Shown piece by piece: positions 1 through 43,689 of a DNA stretch of 43,689 nt. The stretch's first letter is position 1; every line of letters begins with the position of its first letter. The stretch is from a virus (Duplodnaviria > Heunggongvirae > Uroviricota > Caudoviricetes): positions 1 to 43,689 of IMG/VR virus record IMGVR_UViG_3300045988_038444; one strand, given 5' to 3'. A program made the translations under genes and the position numbers. The notes beneath the pieces were generated by a model. It searched no databases. It worked only from the letters and a program-made list of their open reading frames with translations, and had not been told where the DNA came from.

Positions 1-105
1 CCTGTAGCAGCGCCTACACCAGCGGCAGCACCTGTAGCAGCGCCTACACCAGCGGCAGCACCTGTAGCAGCGCCTACACCAGCGGCAGCACCTGTAGCAG
101 CGCCT
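1..105 (+). repeat. Coding tandem repeat, 30-bp unit cctgtagcagcgcctacaccagcggcagca x3 plus a partial fourth copy
   Basis: Three exact 30-bp copies at 1-90 and a diverged partial copy after; in frame 1 they encode PVAAPTPAAA repeats. Confidence 0.9.
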
Positions 106-16101: not shown

Positions 16102-16145
16102 GAAGCATATACACAGTTTAACACGGGTCTAAAAAGCGACAAACG

Positions 16146-16190
16146 TTTAAAATAATTCTTGACGGATTACACAATGATGTGTAACCTACA
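16146..16190 (+). promoter_or_regulatory. Conserved early promoter copy: A/T-rich UP-like tttaaaataattc, -35 TTGACG (16159-16164), 17-nt spacer, -10 taacct
   Basis: One of at least nine near-identical plus-strand copies of tttaaaataattcTTGAC. Confidence 0.7.
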
Positions 16191-22953: not shown

Positions 22954-23161
22954 AAATGGCTCTGGGTGATAATGAGGGTTTTACATAACTGGTCATCCAC
23001 ACCTGACGTCCCAACATACCCCTATGCGTGACACGTGAATAACCAGTTATGTAAAACGACACGCAGTTCAGGATGTTTCACAACATGCTTTACCCACGAT
23101 TTGCGGCTTTCCCGCCAGCAAGATAAGGATCACCTCCTTATCAGCGAGTGTTTGGGTTGTG

Positions 23162-23205
23162 GCGGTTGGAATCGAACCAACTCCCATCGGTGCGATTCCA
23201 ACCGC
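23162..23205 (-). other. tRNA-like structured element: 13-bp perfect inverted repeat, T-loop-like GTTGG-TTCGATT-CCAAC on the minus strand
   Basis: gcggttggaatcg (23162-23174) and cgattccaaccgc (23193-23205); minus strand carries a consensus T-arm followed by CGCCACA, but no canonical anticodon arm could be folded by eye. Confidence 0.25.
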
Positions 23206-23459
23206 AGTACGCGCAGCGGTCCGCTACATGACTAGTATTTTCACGGTCGCCTATCTGCTAGCTCGCCATTGAGCTTCACCACAACGGAAAGAGCACTGGA
23301 ACTTGGGCTGAGTATTACCGCATGTCTTTCGACTTCGAACCAAGGCTGACATTACCCAATGCTCTTACCTGTTATGTGCCGGTTACGTTTATCCGGCGTC
23401 TTTCGACCGATTAAGTGATAGTGTCTGCTATGCAGTTCTGTCACTGACTTAACAATAGG

Positions 23460-23813
23460 TCAAGAATAGTTATATGTCAAGCCTTGTGATTCACACCATT
23501 TAGCAGCGGCACTTTTACTACTAAACGATTCTGAATTCATCGGCATACCCATAACATAAACATTATAGGTTTTTGGCGCATCACGTCGGATTTCAGCCGC
23601 AGTGGTTGATGCCGATTCTTCGGTTGCTACAGTCACTGGTTCTTCAACGGTCGCAGTAGCTGGTTCAATGTGGCGCATACGCACAAGGGCGTTTAAAACA
23701 GCCGGGGTAGCTTTTGATGTTGATACTTTATCGCCAGCGGACATCTGTTTACCGTTCCACAGCATCGGACGGGTGAAAACATATTTCAGTGACGGATCAT
23801 ATGAATTACGCAT
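23460..23813 (-). CDS. Hypothetical protein downstream of the major capsid gene
   Basis: Track ORF 23460..23867; start moved to ATG 23813 (MRNSYDP) after gagg because the extension encodes the terminator hairpin. Confidence 0.4.
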   Translation of the reverse strand: MRNSYDPSLKYVFTRPMLWNGKQMSAGDKVSTSKATPAVLNALVRMRHIEPATATVEEPVTVATEESASTTAAEIRRDAPKTYNVYVMGMPMNSESFSSKSAAAKWCESQGLTYNYS

Positions 23814-23828
23814 GATTTTAACCTCATG

Positions 23829-23856
23829 AAAAAAGGGGCAGCATAAGCCACCCCTT
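23829..23856 (-). terminator. Rho-independent terminator after the major capsid gene
   Basis: Minus strand GGGGTGGC-TTAT-GCTGCCCC (two G.U pairs) followed by T6. Confidence 0.5.
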
Positions 23857-23875
23857 AATGATATCACAGTTGTTA

Positions 23876-25309: not shown

Positions 25310-26568
25310 TATTCGTCACCTCGCATCGCTTCGATTGCTTCCTGACCTTTTTTAGTTGCAGAAACTGCCTGCATAGCCTGGGTGCGTGTTTTACCCGGAT
25401 TTGCTTTCAGCCATTCGTTGATCATGTCTTCCAGTGCACTGGAACCTTTACCACTACCGTTCGGCGCTGCTGGCTCTTTACGTGCTTTCCAGAGTTCGTC
25501 GGCCTGTTTGAGTTTTTCAACCAGAAAGTTACGATCCGCTTCCGGTAAACGCTCAAGAGTCATGACCATTTGGGTTTTCTGTACCATTTCACCCGGAATG
25601 TGTGCGAAATCAGCGTTCACGGTTTTTTCAGCTTTCGCCAGTGCCGCTTCAGTCTGTGCTTTGCGAAGTTGTTCGTCCTGAGATTTCAGAACATCATACA
25701 TCGGACCAGCTACAGACTTCTGAACAACCTGACCAGCAATCGTGGTAAACGATTCATCAGCCTGTTTAGCCATCGTCACGAGGGCATCGCGAGCAGTGGC
25801 ATCCATTTTACGGAATGCTTCCTGATCAGATTCAGGCAGAGAATTATGATACGCCTTATGGACGTCGTTCATCTCAGCCAGGGCTTTGTATTTTTCCAGT
25901 TCGGACATTTCGATTTCCTCTGCCGTTTTTAAAACTTGAGGTACTTCCTGGTCCGGGTGTAATTTTTTCCACGCGGATCGGACTTTGTTTTTCACACCTG
26001 CTAAATCGGCTTCAGGGATTTCAACTTTGTTACCGCGATAACCCGGACCTAATGCAGCAAGTGCAGCGCCTACAATACGCGCATCAGGTTCACCGCCAGG
26101 GGTAGCTGTTAAACGAAGTTTCCAGGTTGAAGGTTTTTCTGGATCTGGCACATATGCATAATCAGATGCCGGGAAAACTTCACCGTCTTCAGTTTTACCA
26201 CCTTTCGCTTTATTCATCGAAATACCAGCGGCCTGTTGCAACGTTATAATATATTCATTTACCGCGTCACGCAATGCTGCTTGTTTATCGGTAACAGAAT
26301 CATCTTTTGCAATATCCTCTGCTGCTTCATAAAGCGCATCGTTCAACATCCACGAATTAGAGAGGAAATCACGAACTTTCTGTTCAAGTTCTTTTTCAGC
26401 CAGTGCCGCGCTGAATGTTGACTTTAAAAGAACAACAGCAGGCGGTTCTGAATGTGATTTAAGAACAAGAGCATTTGCTCCCTCGTGAGCAGGTTTTGTC
26501 ACGCCGGACAGAAAACCGATCTTCATCGATTTAGCGCGGCGTAAATGATTAGTACCATCTGTACGCAT
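25309..26568 (-). CDS. Capsid scaffolding-like protein (putative)
   Basis: 419 aa with a long charged alpha-helical C-terminal half; ATG overlaps the upstream stop (taATG). Confidence 0.35.
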   Translation of the reverse strand: MRTDGTNHLRRAKSMKIGFLSGVTKPAHEGANALVLKSHSEPPAVVLLKSTFSAALAEKELEQKVRDFLSNSWMLNDALYEAAEDIAKDDSVTDKQAALRDAVNEYIITLQQAAGISMNKAKGGKTEDGEVFPASDYAYVPDPEKPSTWKLRLTATPGGEPDARIVGAALAALGPGYRGNKVEIPEADLAGVKNKVRSAWKKLHPDQEVPQVLKTAEEIEMSELEKYKALAEMNDVHKAYHNSLPESDQEAFRKMDATARDALVTMAKQADESFTTIAGQVVQKSVAGPMYDVLKSQDEQLRKAQTEAALAKAEKTVNADFAHIPGEMVQKTQMVMTLERLPEADRNFLVEKLKQADELWKARKEPAAPNGSGKGSSALEDMINEWLKANPGKTRTQAMQAVSATKKGQEAIEAMRGDE

Positions 26569-26978
26569 TATTCCACATCCTCATAATATGCAGTTCCACC
26601 GATACTATATCCCGTATATTCACCAGTCTGAAACTTTTTCAAAACTTCGTCATCAGTTATCAACGTACCAACAATGACGCCTGTCTGATCCAGTTTATCA
26701 ACCAGTCCAAAACTTGCTGCAATGTCTTCGGTCATCGGGAACGCAAACACAACTTTCCCAACAGGTTGTTGATTATGCATATTATCCATGATGCGCTGAT
26801 CAGAATTCATGAAGTCCAACCATGCTTTCAGAGTGACATCCTCGGGAAATTGCTCGTTGTCCGTGTCTGTGTAAATTTCTAACTGACCTGTCTCCTGATT
26901 ACGTTTTTTACAGATACTACCCCAACCGAATACCATACGTAGTGAGTTGTCAACCTTATTAACTTTTACGTTAATCAC
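26568..26978 (-). CDS. Hypothetical head-module protein
   Basis: 136-aa ORF in the head gene block. Confidence 0.35.
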   Translation of the reverse strand: MINVKVNKVDNSLRMVFGWGSICKKRNQETGQLEIYTDTDNEQFPEDVTLKAWLDFMNSDQRIMDNMHNQQPVGKVVFAFPMTEDIAASFGLVDKLDQTGVIVGTLITDDEVLKKFQTGEYTGYSIGGTAYYEDVE

Positions 26979-27385
26979 GGGGATTGTCCTCGTATTGTTT
27001 CAACATGACTAAATTCTAACATTTCGGATGAATAATTGCACTGGTGATACACGCTGTTTACAACGTTACCGAATATCTCAGAAAGATTCTTGATCGGTTC
27101 AACAGCAGTCGTTACTGGTTCAACAGCAGTCGTTACTGGTTCAACAGTAGTCGTTACCGGTTCAACAGTAGTCGTTACCGGTTCAACAGCAGTCGTTACT
27201 GGTTCAACAGCGTCCAGATGTTCAGCGACAACCTGGAAAAACACTGTGTTAGTTTCACGGTCAATAATAACCACTGTGCTGGAACTATCTTCAACAATGC
27301 TGAATGAGTAGTCGTAACGATCACCGTGAATTTTACGGGCGCGACGAATGAATTCGTCTGTAGCAACTCTGATGTTCGGATCCAT
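26975..27385 (-). CDS. Repeat protein: N-terminal KYDYS module followed by six VEPVTT(A/T) heptad repeats
   Basis: Start taken at ATG 27385 (MDPNIRVATDEFIRRARKIHGDRYDYS...); the N-terminal module matches the repeat unit of the T5orf172 genes. Confidence 0.5.
   Translation of the reverse strand: MDPNIRVATDEFIRRARKIHGDRYDYSFSIVEDSSSTVVIIDRETNTVFFQVVAEHLDAVEPVTTAVEPVTTTVEPVTTTVEPVTTAVEPVTTAVEPIKNLSEIFGNVVNSVYHQCNYSSEMLEFSHVETIRGQSP
27105..27218 (-). repeat. Coding tandem repeat, 21-bp unit (ttcaacagcagtcgttactgg on the plus strand), about 5.5 copies
   Basis: Direct repeats visible at 27105-27218; encode VEPVTTA heptads on the minus strand. Confidence 0.85.
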
Positions 27386-27411
27386 ACATTCAACCCTTCT
27401 TGTTCTCTTAA

Positions 27412-27456
27412 CCACAGGGTAGTTGTGTCGGTGTAATCCGTCAAGAATTATTTTGC
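27412..27456 (-). promoter_or_regulatory. Inverted copy of the conserved early promoter, reading leftward
   Basis: Plus gtaatccgtcaagaattatttt is the reverse complement of aaaataattcttgacggattac; downstream leader nearly matches the plus copy at 27742. Confidence 0.6.
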
Positions 27457-27526
27457 GTATAGATTCATGGGAAGTATGCGACCCCCTATACCTTTTAAAC
27501 CTCTCCTACTTGCAGCAACTTTTACT

Positions 27527-27640
27527 ACTTATACTACTCTTCTATTTATCTATGTTTATTATGTTTTCTATAAAAAGATAACAAAAAGAATAAGATAGAG
27601 AGGGGTTGGTTAAAAAGTAAACATGACGAAATATATGAAT
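27527..27640. repeat. Conserved ~110-bp noncoding element, copy A (core 27567-27632)
   Basis: Core tctataaaaagataacaaaaagaataagatagagaggggttggttaaaaagtaaacatgacgaaat recurs at 42643-42708 with 4 mismatches in 66 nt. Confidence 0.8.
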
Positions 27641-27652
27641 CTATGATCTACT

Positions 27653-27733
27653 AATACACGTTCTGTATTAGCCGCAACTCAAAATCATGAAACCTATGTA
27701 GAACTATGTGCAGTTAGTACACGTTCTGTATTA
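27653..27733. promoter_or_regulatory. Two operator-like inverted repeats aataca-cgttc-tgtatt, 63 bp apart
   Basis: aatacacgttctgtatt at 27653-27669 and gtacacgttctgtatta at 27716-27733, just upstream of the promoter at 27742. Confidence 0.4.
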
Positions 27734-27741
27734 ACTGCATC

Positions 27742-27786
27742 TTTAAAATAATTCTTGACGGATTACACCGACGCAACTATCTTGTG
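27742..27786 (+). promoter_or_regulatory. Conserved early promoter copy (-35 TTGACG 27755-27760, -10 tatctt 27778-27783)
   Basis: ctttaaaataattcttgacggattacaccgacgcaactatctt. Confidence 0.7.
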
Positions 27787-27814
27787 GTTAACAGGAAGAA
27801 AAAGGAGACATGCA

Positions 27815-27883
27815 ATGATTTACTACATACTGGCTTTCATGATTTTCGCAGCACCTGTGATCGTAGGAATAGTAAGAGGTTAA
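27815..27883 (+). CDS. Possible 22-aa hydrophobic leader peptide (MIYYILAFMIFAAPVIVGIVRG)
   Basis: aggaga 6 nt upstream of ATG 27815; lies between promoter and first long gene. Confidence 0.25.
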   Translation: MIYYILAFMIFAAPVIVGIVRG

Positions 27884-27887
27884 CAGT

Positions 27888-28436
27888 ATGAACGAACTGA
27901 CAAACACCAACGTTGATTTCACAATGTCCAGCCTGGATTTCTTGAAGAATGTTATCAACCCAGCACGTGTGGCTGAAGGTGAGGAAGTCTGGGTCCGTCA
28001 TAATGATTTCTTAGCCAGAGTTAAGGATGAATTAGAAGGTCAAGTTTTGGTTACGAAACTTTTCACACCCAAACTTCAGGGAAGAGGTGGCAATAGAAAA
28101 CCGTTTGAAGTGGTCGATCTAAACATGGATCAAATGCTTCTTGTGGGTATGCGTGAATCTAAAGCCGTTCGCAAAGCTGTATTAGCCAAATTAAAGAAGT
28201 TGAATAACCACCAACACCAACCGTTACTACAGTTACAGTGTGAAATCGGAGAATTGCACAAACAGAATGACGAACTACGTAACGAAATTGAAGTCGATCG
28301 TAAGACCTATGATTTGTTGTTGGTAGACATGAAAAAGTTATGGGAAGAGAAAGAAAATCTGCAAAAAGAATTAACTGCTTTGCGTAAACAGGATGATGTT
28401 CGTAAACGTGCGCTTAAACTTTTACTTGGGTTATAA
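27888..28436 (+). CDS. Hypothetical early protein with C-terminal coiled-coil
   Basis: 182-aa ORF; agagg RBS; heptad-like charged C-terminus. Confidence 0.5.
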   Translation: MNELTNTNVDFTMSSLDFLKNVINPARVAEGEEVWVRHNDFLARVKDELEGQVLVTKLFTPKLQGRGGNRKPFEVVDLNMDQMLLVGMRESKAVRKAVLAKLKKLNNHQHQPLLQLQCEIGELHKQNDELRNEIEVDRKTYDLLLVDMKKLWEEKENLQKELTALRKQDDVRKRALKLLLGL

Positions 28437-28439
28437 CCT

Positions 28440-28601
28440 ATGGGTAAAAAGAAACGGAAACAGCCTGTCAAGAAAGAACCATATAACCCACGGCATGTTA
28501 ATGAGTTATGGGCTAAAGATGTGGACGATTTTACTGAATCTGACTGGAGTAAAGTCACAAGGTTGATCGTTAAATTAAGACGACTATCGAGGTACGCGTA
28601 A
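28440..28601 (+). CDS. Small basic protein (53 aa)
   Basis: Below track cutoff; ATG 28440 three nt after the upstream stop; its stop overlaps the next ATG (taATG). Confidence 0.35.
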   Translation: MGKKKRKQPVKKEPYNPRHVNELWAKDVDDFTESDWSKVTRLIVKLRRLSRYA

Positions 28602-30310: not shown

Positions 30311-30505
30311 TCATCTTTTGTCACGATTATAACGTCCTTTAAAACCGGGTCTGACCATCAACTTACCATTCACCACCGCGTGAAATTCACCATTGGTGTC
30401 ATCCATATATTTATAAACTGTCGCTTTGTTACACCCAATCCTCCTAGCAAGTTCTGTCACGTTGCCATAAACGGTGGGTAGTAATTCAGAAATAGTTTGA
30501 ACCAT
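30311..30505 (-). CDS. Small helix-turn-helix DNA-binding protein (putative regulator)
   Basis: VTELARRIGCNKATVYKYM resembles an HTH. Confidence 0.4.
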   Translation of the reverse strand: MVQTISELLPTVYGNVTELARRIGCNKATVYKYMDDTNGEFHAVVNGKLMVRPGFKGRYNRDKR

Positions 30506-38063: not shown

Positions 38064-38123
38064 GGTTATCGGCCCGTTTGTAACTGTTCTGTATAGTTTA
38101 CCACGGGTGATTGGTGGTGACAG

Positions 38124-41697: not shown

Positions 41698-42333
41698 TTA
41701 TTTAAGCGCTTTCTGATACAGTTGCGCGATGTCGTCAATAGTTGCACCTTCAGGAACACTCTGAACCACGTTTCCAACCACACCAGACAATTCCACACGG
41801 TCGATACTGTTCCCGGTGATCTTATCCAGTTGTTCAGACGCTTTTGCACGAGTTTTCGGGTCGAACAGTTCACGTGTCACCAGAATGTATCCACCCAGCA
41901 TGTAACGTTTGTAGCAAACTACGTACTGTTGTAGATGGCTGGGGATATCGTCGGTACTGTTCACCCACAGGTGTTTCGCTTCCGTGTCGTCTTCACCAGG
42001 AACGATGACACGCTGACAATACGGTTCCAGTAATTCTTCAGCCGTGCTTGCCGCTCGTTTCCACCACTCGACACGACTCGTTAACGATTCCCCTACAGAC
42101 TCAAGCGCATGACTTCCCATCGCGTCCAGATAGTTCAACACCTTCGTATTCGACAGGAGGCGATGTGCGGTCGTTGCAGCCGCTGCATCAGACGTGTGAC
42201 CCGGATAAGCCTCTAAAACACATCGCGTATTGCTGAAGCCGTTATTGACACGATCTAACCACAGGTTGGCGAACTTGAGCTGTTCCGGCGACAACTCCAG
42301 AGCAGCCCTTTTAGCCCGGTCTGAAATTTTCAT
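41698..42333 (-). CDS. Terminase small subunit-like protein (Terminase_2-type N-terminus)
   Basis: Start at Met 42333 after gggaga; LSPEQLKFANLWLDRVNNGFSNTRCVLEAYPGHTSDAAAATTAHRLLSNTKVLNYLD fits the small-terminase DNA-binding pattern as I recall it. Confidence 0.5.
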   Translation of the reverse strand: MKISDRAKRAALELSPEQLKFANLWLDRVNNGFSNTRCVLEAYPGHTSDAAAATTAHRLLSNTKVLNYLDAMGSHALESVGESLTSRVEWWKRAASTAEELLEPYCQRVIVPGEDDTEAKHLWVNSTDDIPSHLQQYVVCYKRYMLGGYILVTRELFDPKTRAKASEQLDKITGNSIDRVELSGVVGNVVQSVPEGATIDDIAQLYQKALK

Positions 42334-42602
42334 AAATTTGTCTCCCATAAATTTTAAATTAGTTTCCCACAGATACCCACGGGTTGTCCACACGCCCTGT
42401 TTTACAGCTAATACAATGTTAATATTAAGTTTACAGTTAGTGCACAATATGCATTAATTTTCGACTATATACATAAATACGTAGCCCATAATCACAATGA
42501 TTTCAAAGACTTGCATAAAAACATAGATTACAATAGGTATCTCCCAGACTTTTATTTTAGCTCTATTTACAGCTAATACACTATATGCACTATCTCTATC
42601 TT

Positions 42603-42712
42603 TCTATACTACTTCTTCTTTATATCTATGTTTTCTATGTTATCTATAAAAAGATAATAAAAAGAATAAGATAGAGAAGGGTCGGTTAAAAAATAAACAT
42701 GACGAAATCTAT
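42603..42712. repeat. Conserved ~110-bp noncoding element, copy B (core 42643-42708)
   Basis: Matches 27527-27640; core 62 of 66 nt identical. Confidence 0.8.
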
Positions 42713-42729
42713 GTTAAGTATAACTTTAA

Positions 42730-42855
42730 TGCACAACATGCACTATATAATTCACAACGTGCATTAGCTGTGCCAACATAGATACACAACGTGCACTAAC
42801 AGTTAATACACAACGTGCATCTTGCACTAACTGCTAAAGCACAACATGCACTAAG
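42730..42855. repeat. Iteron array: five direct repeats of cACAAC(A/G)TGCA(C/T)TA
   Basis: Copies at about 42731, 42752, 42784, 42807 and 42839, spaced 21-32 bp, upstream of the HTH repeat-protein gene. Confidence 0.7.
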
Positions 42856-42938
42856 TGTAAATACACTAACATATAAAGCACGTCTTGCACTAGCTGCTAA
42901 TGCACGTTATGATTTATCCGTGGTCAAACAAGAAGGGT

Positions 42939-43689
42939 ATGATAATGAAAAAGAACCTTTTAGACGAATTAATAGATTTAAAAGGCGGGGTACAAAACGC
43001 TGTTGAATACCTTAATCGTCGAGGTGTTAAGGTGACTGTTGGTCGTTACAACCAATGGTTAAGCGGTAGGTTTCATCCTAAATATGAAACGATCAGTATT
43101 ATTCTTGAAGAGATTACTGACTTCACACTGTCACCCTTGCCAGTACAACATTCTGACGAAAACATTGTTCTTAAACACACAATACCGGTTACCGAACTGC
43201 GTCAGAAATTACCACACAGACGTTTTGCTAATAACTACTGGCAACGTGTCAGATACGTTGATTCACAGATCCTGGAAGCTGTTCACGGTCACGACGTGTG
43301 GACACGGTTTGAGGCGATGTGTGGTAATTTTGAATGTGCAAGATATGTGCTACGCAGAAATTTAAACGAACACACAATTACTGACAGTTGGATTCAAAAT
43401 GGTTTGCGCCGGGGATGGATCCCGGAATGTGTAAACGTAATGGTCGATTTGCTTGAAAAATACGAAGGCACCGGGACACCGTTTAACGTAATGGTTTGTG
43501 AACCACCTGTATCACGAGTGGAACCACCTGTATCACGAGTGGAAGCACCTGTATCACGAGTGGAACCACCTGTATCACGAGTGGAAGCACCTGTAGCACG
43601 AGTTGAAGCACCTGTAGCACGATTTGAACCGCCTGTAGTCGATGTCAGCGATTTGAAGGAGAAAATCAGACTGTATGCGTTATCACACA
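42939..43689 (+). CDS. 5' part of an XRE-type HTH protein with Pro-rich heptad repeats (3' end beyond the window edge)
   Basis: ATG 42939 after aagaaggg; open to the last base of the window, so absent from the track; NAVEYLNRRGVKVTVGRYNQWLSG is HTH-like; C-terminus is (E[PA]PV[SA]RV)x6. Confidence 0.55.
   Translation, partial: MIMKKNLLDELIDLKGGVQNAVEYLNRRGVKVTVGRYNQWLSGRFHPKYETISIILEEITDFTLSPLPVQHSDENIVLKHTIPVTELRQKLPHRRFANNYWQRVRYVDSQILEAVHGHDVWTRFEAMCGNFECARYVLRRNLNEHTITDSWIQNGLRRGWIPECVNVMVDLLEKYEGTGTPFNVMVCEPPVSRVEPPVSRVEAPVSRVEPPVSRVEAPVARVEAPVARFEPPVVDVSDLKEKIRLYALSH
43500..43640 (+). repeat. Coding tandem repeat, 21-bp unit gaaccacctgtatcacgagtg with variants, about 6.5 copies
   Basis: Direct repeats visible; encode EPPVSRV / EAPVARV heptads. 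Confidence 0.85.

Follow-up and report, generated by a model that had tools for sequence, protein, structure and literature searches.

A candidate composite control region upstream of the head operon in a 9NA-like siphophage, with three predicted promoters and a pair of operator-like palindromes

What does a phage do with two outward-facing copies of one conserved promoter that flank a pair of near-identical palindromes immediately upstream of its head genes? This arrangement occupies positions 27412-27786 of the IMG/VR virus record IMGVR_UViG_3300045988_038444, which we analysed over its full 43,689 nucleotides (the window), and an earlier note on this DNA had taken it for a regulated switch shared by an early operon and the head genes. 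The source of the window is a virulent siphophage of the 9NA group (Nonanavirus/Sashavirus), from the clade that infects E. coli. We term the control region around 27412-27786 region A and a paralogous control region at 42334-42938 region B. With a probability of about one half, we favor the reading that region A is a composite control region, comprising three promoters and a pair of operators for the XRE-type helix-turn-helix (HTH) N-terminal domain of the protein encoded from position 42939 (hereafter the 42939 protein). What the sequences show directly is their anatomy, how far it is conserved and that site type co-varies with protein domain; binding, the direction of regulation and promoter activity are predictions from these. 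The features on which the argument turns are the following:

27394-27454, minus strand: P(-), the left arm of an inverted repeat, a copy of a multi-copy promoter with its leader; -35 hexamer TTGACG at 27439-27444, 17-nt spacer, -10 hexamer TACCCT at 27416-27421
27530-27637, plus strand: AT-rich block of ~109 bp, 76% A+T, with A5 tracts
27618-27647, plus strand: P_O, a predicted promoter TAAACA-N18-TATGAT, matching the consensus at 9/12 positions
27652-27670, unstranded: O1, palindrome TAATACA-CGTTC-TGTATTA, which covers the predicted P_O start
27709-27739, unstranded: O2, palindrome with the core TAGTACA-CGTTC-TGTATTA at 27715-27733; its centre, 27724, lies near -66 of P(+)
27742-27805, plus strand: P(+), the right arm of the inverted repeat; A/T-rich element 27742-27754, -35 hexamer TTGACG at 27755-27760, -10 hexamer TATCTT at 27778-27783
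42334-42938, unstranded: region B, with a second copy of the block (42605-42713) and about ten palindromes TA(A/G)T(A/G)CAC-AAC-GTGCA on both sides of it
42885-42913, plus strand: region-B proximal promoter TTGCAC-N17-TATGAT, overlapped by the last palindromes of the array
42939-43689, plus strand: the 42939 gene, cut off by the window end and encoding the candidate site-binding protein

Across 27000-28500, the window is 94-96% identical to BDX09P1 (Sashavirus) and the E. coli phages PJ16, PDP46, Bas82 (KarinMuster), AVIO78A and 536P12, and the Salmonella phages 9NA, Sasha, Sergei, Solent and SP069 are more distant kin of this stretch. Region A goes unmentioned in the papers on Sergei, AVIO78A, PDP46 and the BASEL phages.

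The inverted duplicate of the promoter lies where the earlier note had placed it: a repeat search recovered arms of 61 nt (27394-27454 and 27745-27805) that are 85% complementary with 290 nt between them; the best inverted-repeat score, 35, exceeds anything in 100 dinucleotide shuffles (mean 10.3, maximum 24). The 45-nt copies originally delimited (27412-27456 and 27742-27786) mismatch at 6 of 45 positions, and the 21-mer TTCTTGACGGATTACACCGAC, for which shuffles predict 0 occurrences, is exact on both strands (27427-27447, minus; 27752-27772, plus). Both arms belong to the promoter family TTTAAAATAATTCTTGACGGATTACA, with TAnnnT 17 nt after TTGACG, so that the promoter described earlier as conserved is indeed a multi-copy family of the sigma-70 type with nine plus-strand copies and one good minus-strand copy. 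A scan of the window with its 23-nt core AAAATAATTCTTGACGGATTACA, permitting up to three mismatches, returned plus-strand copies at 16149, 18095, 27745, 31346, 32488, 34711, 38130, 39492 and 41340 and, on the minus strand, only the one at 27432-27454 along with a degenerate one at 2481; the two arms have 0 mismatches to the core, and nine further copies lie elsewhere in the window. The complete Bas82 genome contains 15 copies on both strands, one of them degenerate (5 mismatches), and relatives have about 15 per genome. The full 61-nt homology, leader included, is confined to three of the seven clade members (the window, PJ16 and BDX09P1), the others sharing only the ~26-nt core. Hence, the long inverted repeat is of recent date, having arisen incidentally as cassettes were shuffled at the promoter core they have in common, and does not represent a regulatory design under conservation.

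All the plus-strand copies other than that at 27745, like those in Bas82, are of the form TTTAAAATAATTCTTGACGGATTACA-N-TAnnnT and head almost every small plus-strand cassette, and copies of the family adjoin, facing away, the 5′ ends of virion genes on the minus strand, among them those for the large terminase, portal and tape measure. The ~26-nt core is conserved far beyond the needs of sigma-70 recognition, Klebsiella relatives included, and an extra factor may read it. Another motif, (A)CCCGTGG(T/G)nAAC, lies 35-60 nt 5′ of several virion genes (small and large terminase, tape measure and head operon) and recurs in the leader of P(+), in that of P(-) and in that of the 42939 gene. Its copies are at 42372-42382, 38096-38106, 27407-27417 and 16116-16126 on the minus strand and at 27782-27792 and 42918-42928 on the plus strand; some of them read TGnTAAACT, which resembles an extended -10 element. 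A sigma-54 reading of the motif upstream of the late genes was dropped, the GG-N10-GC signature being missing.

The minus-strand copy has a history of its own. P(-), whose A/T-rich upstream element reaches 27457 and whose start is predicted near 27409, occurs throughout the E. coli-infecting clade (all seven genomes and three IMG/VR contigs) and is missing in 9NA, Sasha, SP069, Klebsiella phage KP13-27 and three other IMG/VR contigs. These lineages without P(-) have an extended -10 promoter, TGATAnnAT, at a fixed distance of 41 nt before the ATG of the XkdF-like gene of the head operon; the window and Bas82 lack this promoter. The variants of this ancestral head promoter (TGATATTAT, TGATATCAT, TGATACTAT and TGATAATAT) differ only at the least constrained -10 positions, and the leader that comes after them is TACCCGTGGTTAAC. 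Among members of the E. coli clade, identity to these relatives runs up to ...ATCTAT, where the upstream element, -35 and spacer of the family set in, and the old leader resumes at TACCCTGTGGTTAA; the ancestral promoter has thus been replaced by a generic cassette, and P(-) appears to be the clade-specific successor of the extended -10 head-operon promoter. Since it is the sole recognisable promoter before the head operon in this clade and occupies the site of the conserved promoter of the relatives, P(-) probably drives the head genes, in agreement with what the earlier note had proposed for the minus-strand copy.

On the plus side, P(+) (TTGACG-17-TATCTT) matches the consensus at 9/12 positions and has a purine-rich leader and a predicted start near 27790; like P_O, it combines sigma-70 hexamers with a spacing in the range of 16-18 nt. 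The spacer, -10 and leader that P(-) and P(+) share, together with a gene for a 22-aa peptide behind P(+), are found only in the window, PJ16 and BDX09P1, and Bas82, PDP46, 536P12, AVIO78A and 9NA feature another spacer, -10, leader and first gene on this side.

Between the two outer promoters lies the AT-rich block, which is the best-conserved non-coding stretch of region A across the whole phage group. Its second copy, in region B, is 89.9% identical over 109 bp and has the same orientation, and the complete Bas82 genome holds exactly two copies. Both loci have minus-strand virion genes to the left of the block (the head operon and the small terminase, respectively) and a plus-strand gene to its right. 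Searches of 27457-27745 against E. coli genomes gave zero homology, indicating that the block is not borrowed host DNA. At its right end, every region-A lineage examined (the window, Bas82, BDX09P1, Sasha, SP069, 9NA, KP13-27 and UViG_3300048904_000047) displays TAAnCA-N18-TATG(A/T)T with a palindrome 4-5 nt later. The spacer of this element is fixed at 18 nt in length and variable in sequence, ending in ATC, and such conservation of hexamers and spacing around a free spacer sequence marks P_O as a real sigma-70 promoter signature. The pattern occurs once in the window (0.10 expected), and the predicted start, near 27654, falls inside O1, with the 43-bp geometry from block to O1 constant across lineages. 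An A-tract lies immediately 5′ of the P_O -35, the phasing of A-tracts in the block is modest, and the block probably serves as the upstream element of P_O.

The heptamer ATCTATG (or TATCTATAC, in tandem in 9NA) recurs in the block and 15-30 nt before each palindrome in every lineage (27538-27650, 27680-27710 and 42620-42715, with equivalent positions in 9NA, Sasha and KP13-27), and one copy supplies the -10 of P_O. For a leftward promoter-like sequence within the block, TTTACT-N18-TATCTT (minus strand), we make no claim, as it is not conserved in 9NA or the Klebsiella relatives.

The two copies of aataca-cgttc-tgtatt reported earlier are present, with one correction. The sequence TACACGTTCTGTATTA is exact at 27655-27670 and 27718-27733, with starts 63 bp apart and within a 53-nt direct repeat; the second palindrome has one arm mismatch (TAGTACA for the TAATACA of O1), yet its symmetry extends to 13-nt arms (27709-27721 and 27727-27739, 92% complementary). 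Dyad sites lie over a predicted promoter core or start at both loci, O1 on P_O and the last region-B palindromes on TTGCAC-N17-TATGAT. Half-sites of this type, TA[AG]T[AG]CA, number 35 in the window, with 14 in region B and four in region A, and the region-A module appears to be a shorter, paralogous version of the sequence that would control the 42939 gene. Among relatives, the 5-nt centre inverts while the arms stay constant (CACGTTCTG to CAGAACGTG in O1 and/or O2, and CCAGTTTGG to CCAAACTGG in the sites of KP13-27 type), which would fit a symmetric dimer that reads the arms. In a more distant relative, IMGVR_UViG_3300036785_000282 (XkdF-like protein 71% identical), the same place 5′ of the XkdF-like gene holds an unrelated AT-rich region with three ATACCG-RAW-CGGTAT palindromes and several GTTTCAC/GTGTCAC repeats; it is therefore the architecture, rather than the sequence, that seems to be conserved beyond the 9NA group proper.

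A pointer to the protein that may read these sites comes from comparing, lineage by lineage, the type of the N-terminal domain of the 42939 protein with the palindromes at the two loci:

Window, Bas82 and contigs L020-L022: N-terminal type W; region B of the TGCACAACGTGCA type; region A W-like
Sasha: N-terminal type W; region B of the TGCACAACGTGCA type; region A K-like, non-cognate
9NA and UViG_3300048904_000047: N-terminal type 9; region B TAACAC-N3-GTGTTA; region A type 9
Klebsiella phage KP13-27: N-terminal type K; region B CTTACCAG...; region A type K
SP069: a stand-alone type-9 domain and a full-length K-like protein; region B with both types; region A with one K-like and one type-9 site
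BDX09P1: N-terminal type X; region B CTATGACAGGATTA right of the block and W-like left of it; region A W-like, non-cognate

Every lineage examined, the BDX09P1 swap and the SP069 double case among them, has region-B sites that match the N-terminal type, and the region-A pair matches the resident protein in five of the seven lineage types. BDX09P1 is particularly telling: its N-terminal domain is 42% identical to that of the window against 98% for the central domain, and only the array between block and gene has changed, the terminase-proximal sites and region A being still of the W type. Apart from SP069 and SP-062, each genome has one homologue, and no second gene with a K-type N-terminal domain was found in Sasha. 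Of the two regulators proposed earlier, the 42939 gene is thereby favored, as site type tracks its N-terminal domain across lineages, and the product of the NinH gene (30311-30505, plus strand) is disfavored as the binder, being 70% identical between the window and 9NA despite their unrelated sites and showing no domain-swap pattern. The small terminase likewise shows no swap, with an N-terminus 77-79% identical between lineages whose sites are unrelated. In SP069 (KC139651; positions 281-1170) and SP-062, a stand-alone 69-aa HTH domain of the 9NA type is encoded directly 5′ of the full-length K-like protein, which looks like a natural two-specificity intermediate of cassette exchange.

The 42939 protein belongs to a tiny family (10 clusters among 5.8 billion proteins; 12 representatives among 1.84 billion), with the homologues 9NA gp84, Sasha gp81 and Bas82_0094, and falls in phrog_25538, a family to which no function is assigned. 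From the N-terminus on, it consists of a domain of ~65 aa that varies between lineages, a conserved centre that contains LPHRRF...HGHDVWTRFE.MCGNF, EPPVxRx heptads in varying number (EPPVSRV in the window) and, at the C-terminus, an acidic tail that is again conserved. AlphaFold models only the N-terminal domain, a bundle of four helices, with confidence (per-residue confidence, pLDDT, 76-90). The closest local fold matches that Foldseek gave for this domain, all at E > 1, are to DdrO and TP901-1 CI (their N-terminal domains) and to ComR (its DNA-binding domain). When a library of 1.84 billion proteins was searched, positions 25-51 of the family profile matched two multi-HTH_3 proteins (E = 5e-6). 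A search of PDB sequences with the family returned no match, nor did Pfam with the whole protein at E <= 0.01. From the confident four-helix model, the XRE-type local fold matches and the profile match, we conclude that the N-terminal domain is a predicted XRE-like HTH.

Taken together, we posit the following. Host sigma-70 RNA polymerase would fire at P(+), P(-) and P_O. P(+) and P(-) would be inverted copies of a generic strong cassette (A/T-rich upstream element, TTGACG, 17 nt, TAnnnT), of which the upstream element, -35 and spacer would have been spliced onto the ancestral head leader TACCC-GTGGTTAA at the cost of the old extended -10; in the window, PJ16 and BDX09P1, the plus side would also have received copies of the P(-) spacer, -10 and leader, together with the 22-aa peptide gene. 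Between these promoters would sit an older conserved module of the A-tract-bearing AT-rich block, P_O and the two palindromes. The 42939 protein, made from region B and likely dimeric, would bind its own array and repress its own promoters; on O1 it would cover the P_O start and repress P_O, and on O2 it would abut the upstream element of P(+). P(-) would transcribe a 136-aa gene and the head operon, and nothing places it under the control of the palindromes.

Several observations weigh against this proposal. A promoter scan gave a total of five promoter-like sites, against 5.5 in shuffles, and did not report P(-), whose -35 matches the consensus at 5/6 positions and whose -10 at 3/6. P_O has a weak -35, and as the corresponding hexamers of region B are 19-20 nt apart, it is in region A that this promoter has its best support. 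From lineage to lineage, the spacing between O2 and P(+) differs by ~10 bp. The region-A palindromes of Sasha and BDX09P1 mismatch the resident protein, which implies either that the pair is dispensable or that these phages are recent recombinants. As for the protein, the Foldseek matches have the poor E-values given above, Pfam HTH_3 reaches 12-13 bits against a cut-off of 23 (E = 0.1-0.2) in three of six N-terminal-domain types, and Pfam, PHROGs, PDB and fold searches assign no function to the conserved central and C-terminal parts. Finally, an AT-rich block beside an array of palindromes fits a replication origin equally well.

That last point opens the alternative that the two loci are replication origins, with the block as DNA-unwinding element, the palindromes as iterons and the 42939 protein as initiator, B being the primary origin and A a secondary one; the variable N-terminal domain would bind the origin, the conserved remainder would recruit the phage helicase-primase and the flanking promoters would provide transcriptional activation. 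We consider this unlikely, though several points are in its favor: an iteron-like layout, with palindromes directly beside a 76% A+T block twice per genome (~10 sites in B, two in A); a heptad-repeat linker to a conserved acidic C-terminal tail; the position of the 42939 gene at the end of a helicase/primase/ParB-like cluster; and the non-cognate region-A sites of viable phages, as expected of a dispensable secondary origin. Lambdoid O proteins have an N-terminal domain that is exchanged jointly with its sites and a conserved C-terminal part, and here too the N-terminal domain and sites swap together while the C-terminal part is conserved. Against it, the 42939 protein has no similarity to known initiators in Pfam, PHROGs, PDB sequences or folds, neither region contains a DnaA box, IHF consensus or oriC-type 13-mer (a Fis scan gave nothing in region A and one consensus match in the region-B block), the GC skew of the complete Bas82 genome mirrors gene orientation with no origin signal, and region A holds two sites only. 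The placement of O1 on a predicted start at fixed geometry, and of the last region-B sites over the gene's own promoter, is moreover that of classical operators, although plasmid Rep proteins have operator-like site placement too. A founding member of a phage-specific initiator family, or of a bifunctional initiator-regulator family, with an exchangeable N-terminal domain and with paired origins coupling replication to the packaging and head genes, is a version that we hold to be quite unlikely; should the origins be real, they would be the first mapped for the 9NA-like group. An origin is not the only role that can be read into a block beside the small terminase. Were the block and repeats a packaging signal (pac), with region A as a pac-like duplicate, it would be apt that region B adjoins the small terminase gene, though region A does not, and that the GenBank records of 9NA, Sasha and Solent were opened inside region B; 9NA is also known to package by the headful mechanism from a pac site (PMC4153490). 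We rate this as very improbable, given that site type tracks the 42939 N-terminal domain and not the terminase, whose N-terminus is conserved between lineages with unrelated sites as stated above, and that in BDX09P1 the array and domain have changed next to the same terminase-proximal sequence. Phage 9NA, furthermore, yields a single pac fragment (PMC4153490), as against a block that is present twice.

The single switch of the earlier note, in which a palindrome-bound regulator would turn the early operon down and the head operon up in the manner of phi29 p4/p6, is improbable in our estimate. The divergent layout, in which an early-type promoter and the head operon are separated by binding sites and by AT-rich DNA whose A-tracts are partly phased, invites it, as do the presence of the block upstream of late operons at both loci (head and small terminase) and the fixed 43-bp spacing from block to O1 across lineages. 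The palindromes, however, lie ~200 bp upstream of P(-), next to the rightward promoters P_O and P(+), and in relatives they are as far from the ancestral head promoter; P(-) is restricted to one clade and missing in most lineages, whereas the block and sites are in all; and the sites of Sasha and BDX09P1 are non-cognate. The ancestral head promoter, in addition, is of the extended -10 type, and extended -10 sigma-70 promoters normally require no activator. The claim of one switch for the early operon and the head genes is consequently not upheld. We also weighed the possibility that the region-A palindromes are a non-functional relic of a partial duplication of region B, or act as DNA or RNA hairpins (terminators or processing sites), which strikes us as decidedly improbable. 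Non-cognate pairs are tolerated in two lineages, O1 and O2 fold as single strands better than shuffles (-5.0 and -9.4 kcal/mol; z = -3.6 and -5.4), and flipped palindrome centres are typical of hairpin-mediated inversion. A relic would hardly retain a lineage-specific pair of sites at the same two positions in all lineages, distant Klebsiella phages included, and the more distant contig described above has other palindromes upstream of its head operon. As to hairpins, the stems are AT-rich and lack a U-tract, no intrinsic terminator is predicted at 27650-27745, and there is no Rfam family; the region-B sites fold no better than shuffles (z about -0.5), which favors protein binding.

The composite control region that we prefer has partial counterparts in several known systems. 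It shares with lambdoid OL/OR and CI/Cro the multiple dyad operators over promoters at two loci, an XRE-class HTH, a regulator gene that would be autoregulated and the exchange of specificity and operators as a cassette, as in heteroimmune phages. Unlike in lambdoid immunity, this phage is virulent and lacks lysogeny genes, its loci are ~15 kb rather than ~2 kb apart, the 42939 protein carries a large additional group-only domain and a heptad-repeat linker, and region B would offer a putative binding array of ~10 sites over 600 bp on both sides of an AT-rich block. Lambda ori/O and SPP1 oriL/oriR/G38P resemble the present loci in their palindromic repeats by an AT-rich region and in a co-varying N-terminal domain with a conserved C-terminal part, SPP1 also in the two copies per genome. 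The differences are that the 42939 protein has no detectable homology to O, G38P or other initiators, that DnaA and IHF motifs are missing and that the sites are intergenic and over promoters, not inside the gene of the initiator. With phi29 p4/p6 there is likeness in divergent early-type and virion promoters, inverted-repeat sites and AT-rich, possibly bent DNA between them; in contrast to phi29, homologues of p4 and p6 were not found, a long distance separates the sites from the promoter of the virion genes, and the minus-strand promoter, confined to a single clade, belongs to the sigma-70 class just as the early ones do. The early promoter families of T4 and T5 are comparable in that ~15 near-identical copies each stand at the head of a small gene cassette and combine an A/T-rich upstream element with a -35 close to consensus and a spacer of 17 nt; they differ in that the copies here stand back to back with opposite-strand virion genes and one appears to have been recruited for the head operon. 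Promoter families and HTH-operator modules are thus of known kinds, and what is new, the work of Zeng et al. (2019) on the group aside, would be the protein family, the way in which its specificity is exchanged as a cassette, the module found at two loci and a head promoter whose replacement is documented.

The genes around the two loci are arranged so that the virion genes lie on the minus strand in the orientation of the window (small terminase, large terminase, portal, an SPP1 gp7-like protein, the head operon from 27385 and the tail genes), broken up by short plus-strand gene cassettes. Those nearest to regions A and B are:

26568-26978, minus strand: XkdF-like gene, the ancestral first gene of the head operon
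26975-27385, minus strand: clade-specific 136-aa gene directly downstream of P(-), whose end overlaps the start of the XkdF-like gene
27815-27883, plus strand: 22-aa hydrophobic peptide MIYYILAFMIFAAPVIVGIVRG, the first open reading frame (ORF) after P(+)
27888-28436, plus strand: 182-aa protein with an anti-repressor-like N-terminus
41698-42333, minus strand: small terminase gene (phrog_51, E = 3e-11; Sasha TerS 100% identical)

The true start of the small terminase gene is the ATG at 42333, and the gene is divergent from the 42939 gene with region B between them. The Bas82 annotation calls the product of 26568-26978 a DNA methyltransferase. In our searches, this product matched PF14550, the family of XkdF-type phage serine proteases (E = 8e-8), and only the C-terminal part of phrog_1530, and the methyltransferase label is probably an annotation carry-over. 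The 136-aa gene, not found in 9NA or Sasha, was gained in the same clade as P(-). Its protein has the N-terminal motif FIRRARKIHGDRYDYS and five and a half VEPVTTx heptads derived from 21-nt tandem repeats; Pfam gave zero significant matches to it, and the PDP46 orthologue is annotated as DUF723-family. Tandem repeats of 21 nt occur in two unrelated genes and encode similar heptads (VEPVTTx, 27096-27211; EPPVSRV, 43500-43637), with a highly variable copy number that ranges from none in 9NA to an annotated 282-bp repeat region in Sasha. A separate 30-nt repeat, with 3.5 copies at 100% identity, forms the start of the window (1-105).

Rfam searches of both control regions at permissive thresholds and of the whole window at the gathering score produced chance-level matches only. 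Away from the control regions, a ~350-nt intergenic stretch without an ORF (23100-23460, minus strand), between the end of the gene at 23460-23867 and the gene starting at 23062, has a predicted RNA fold of -105.6 kcal/mol (z = -3.9 against shuffles) and a tRNA-like T-arm, GGTTCGATTCCAACC, at 23164-23178, and a promoter-like TTGACA sequence lies upstream of it near 23470-23500. ARAGORN finds no tRNA and Rfam no family in this stretch, which is a candidate non-coding RNA within the head-tail gene block.

The 9NA-like phages (Nonanavirus/Sashavirus), which include the BASEL phage Bas82 and phage-therapy candidates, have a molecular life cycle that has hardly been studied. For this group, the composite control region would supply a testable map of the central control region, with three predicted starts, two operators and a candidate regulator. 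The four natural specificity variants and their cognate sites would be a ready system for the study of HTH/operator co-evolution and cassette exchange. The apparent swap of a late-operon promoter for a copy of the generic family, in turn, would blur the divide between early and late genes in these phages.

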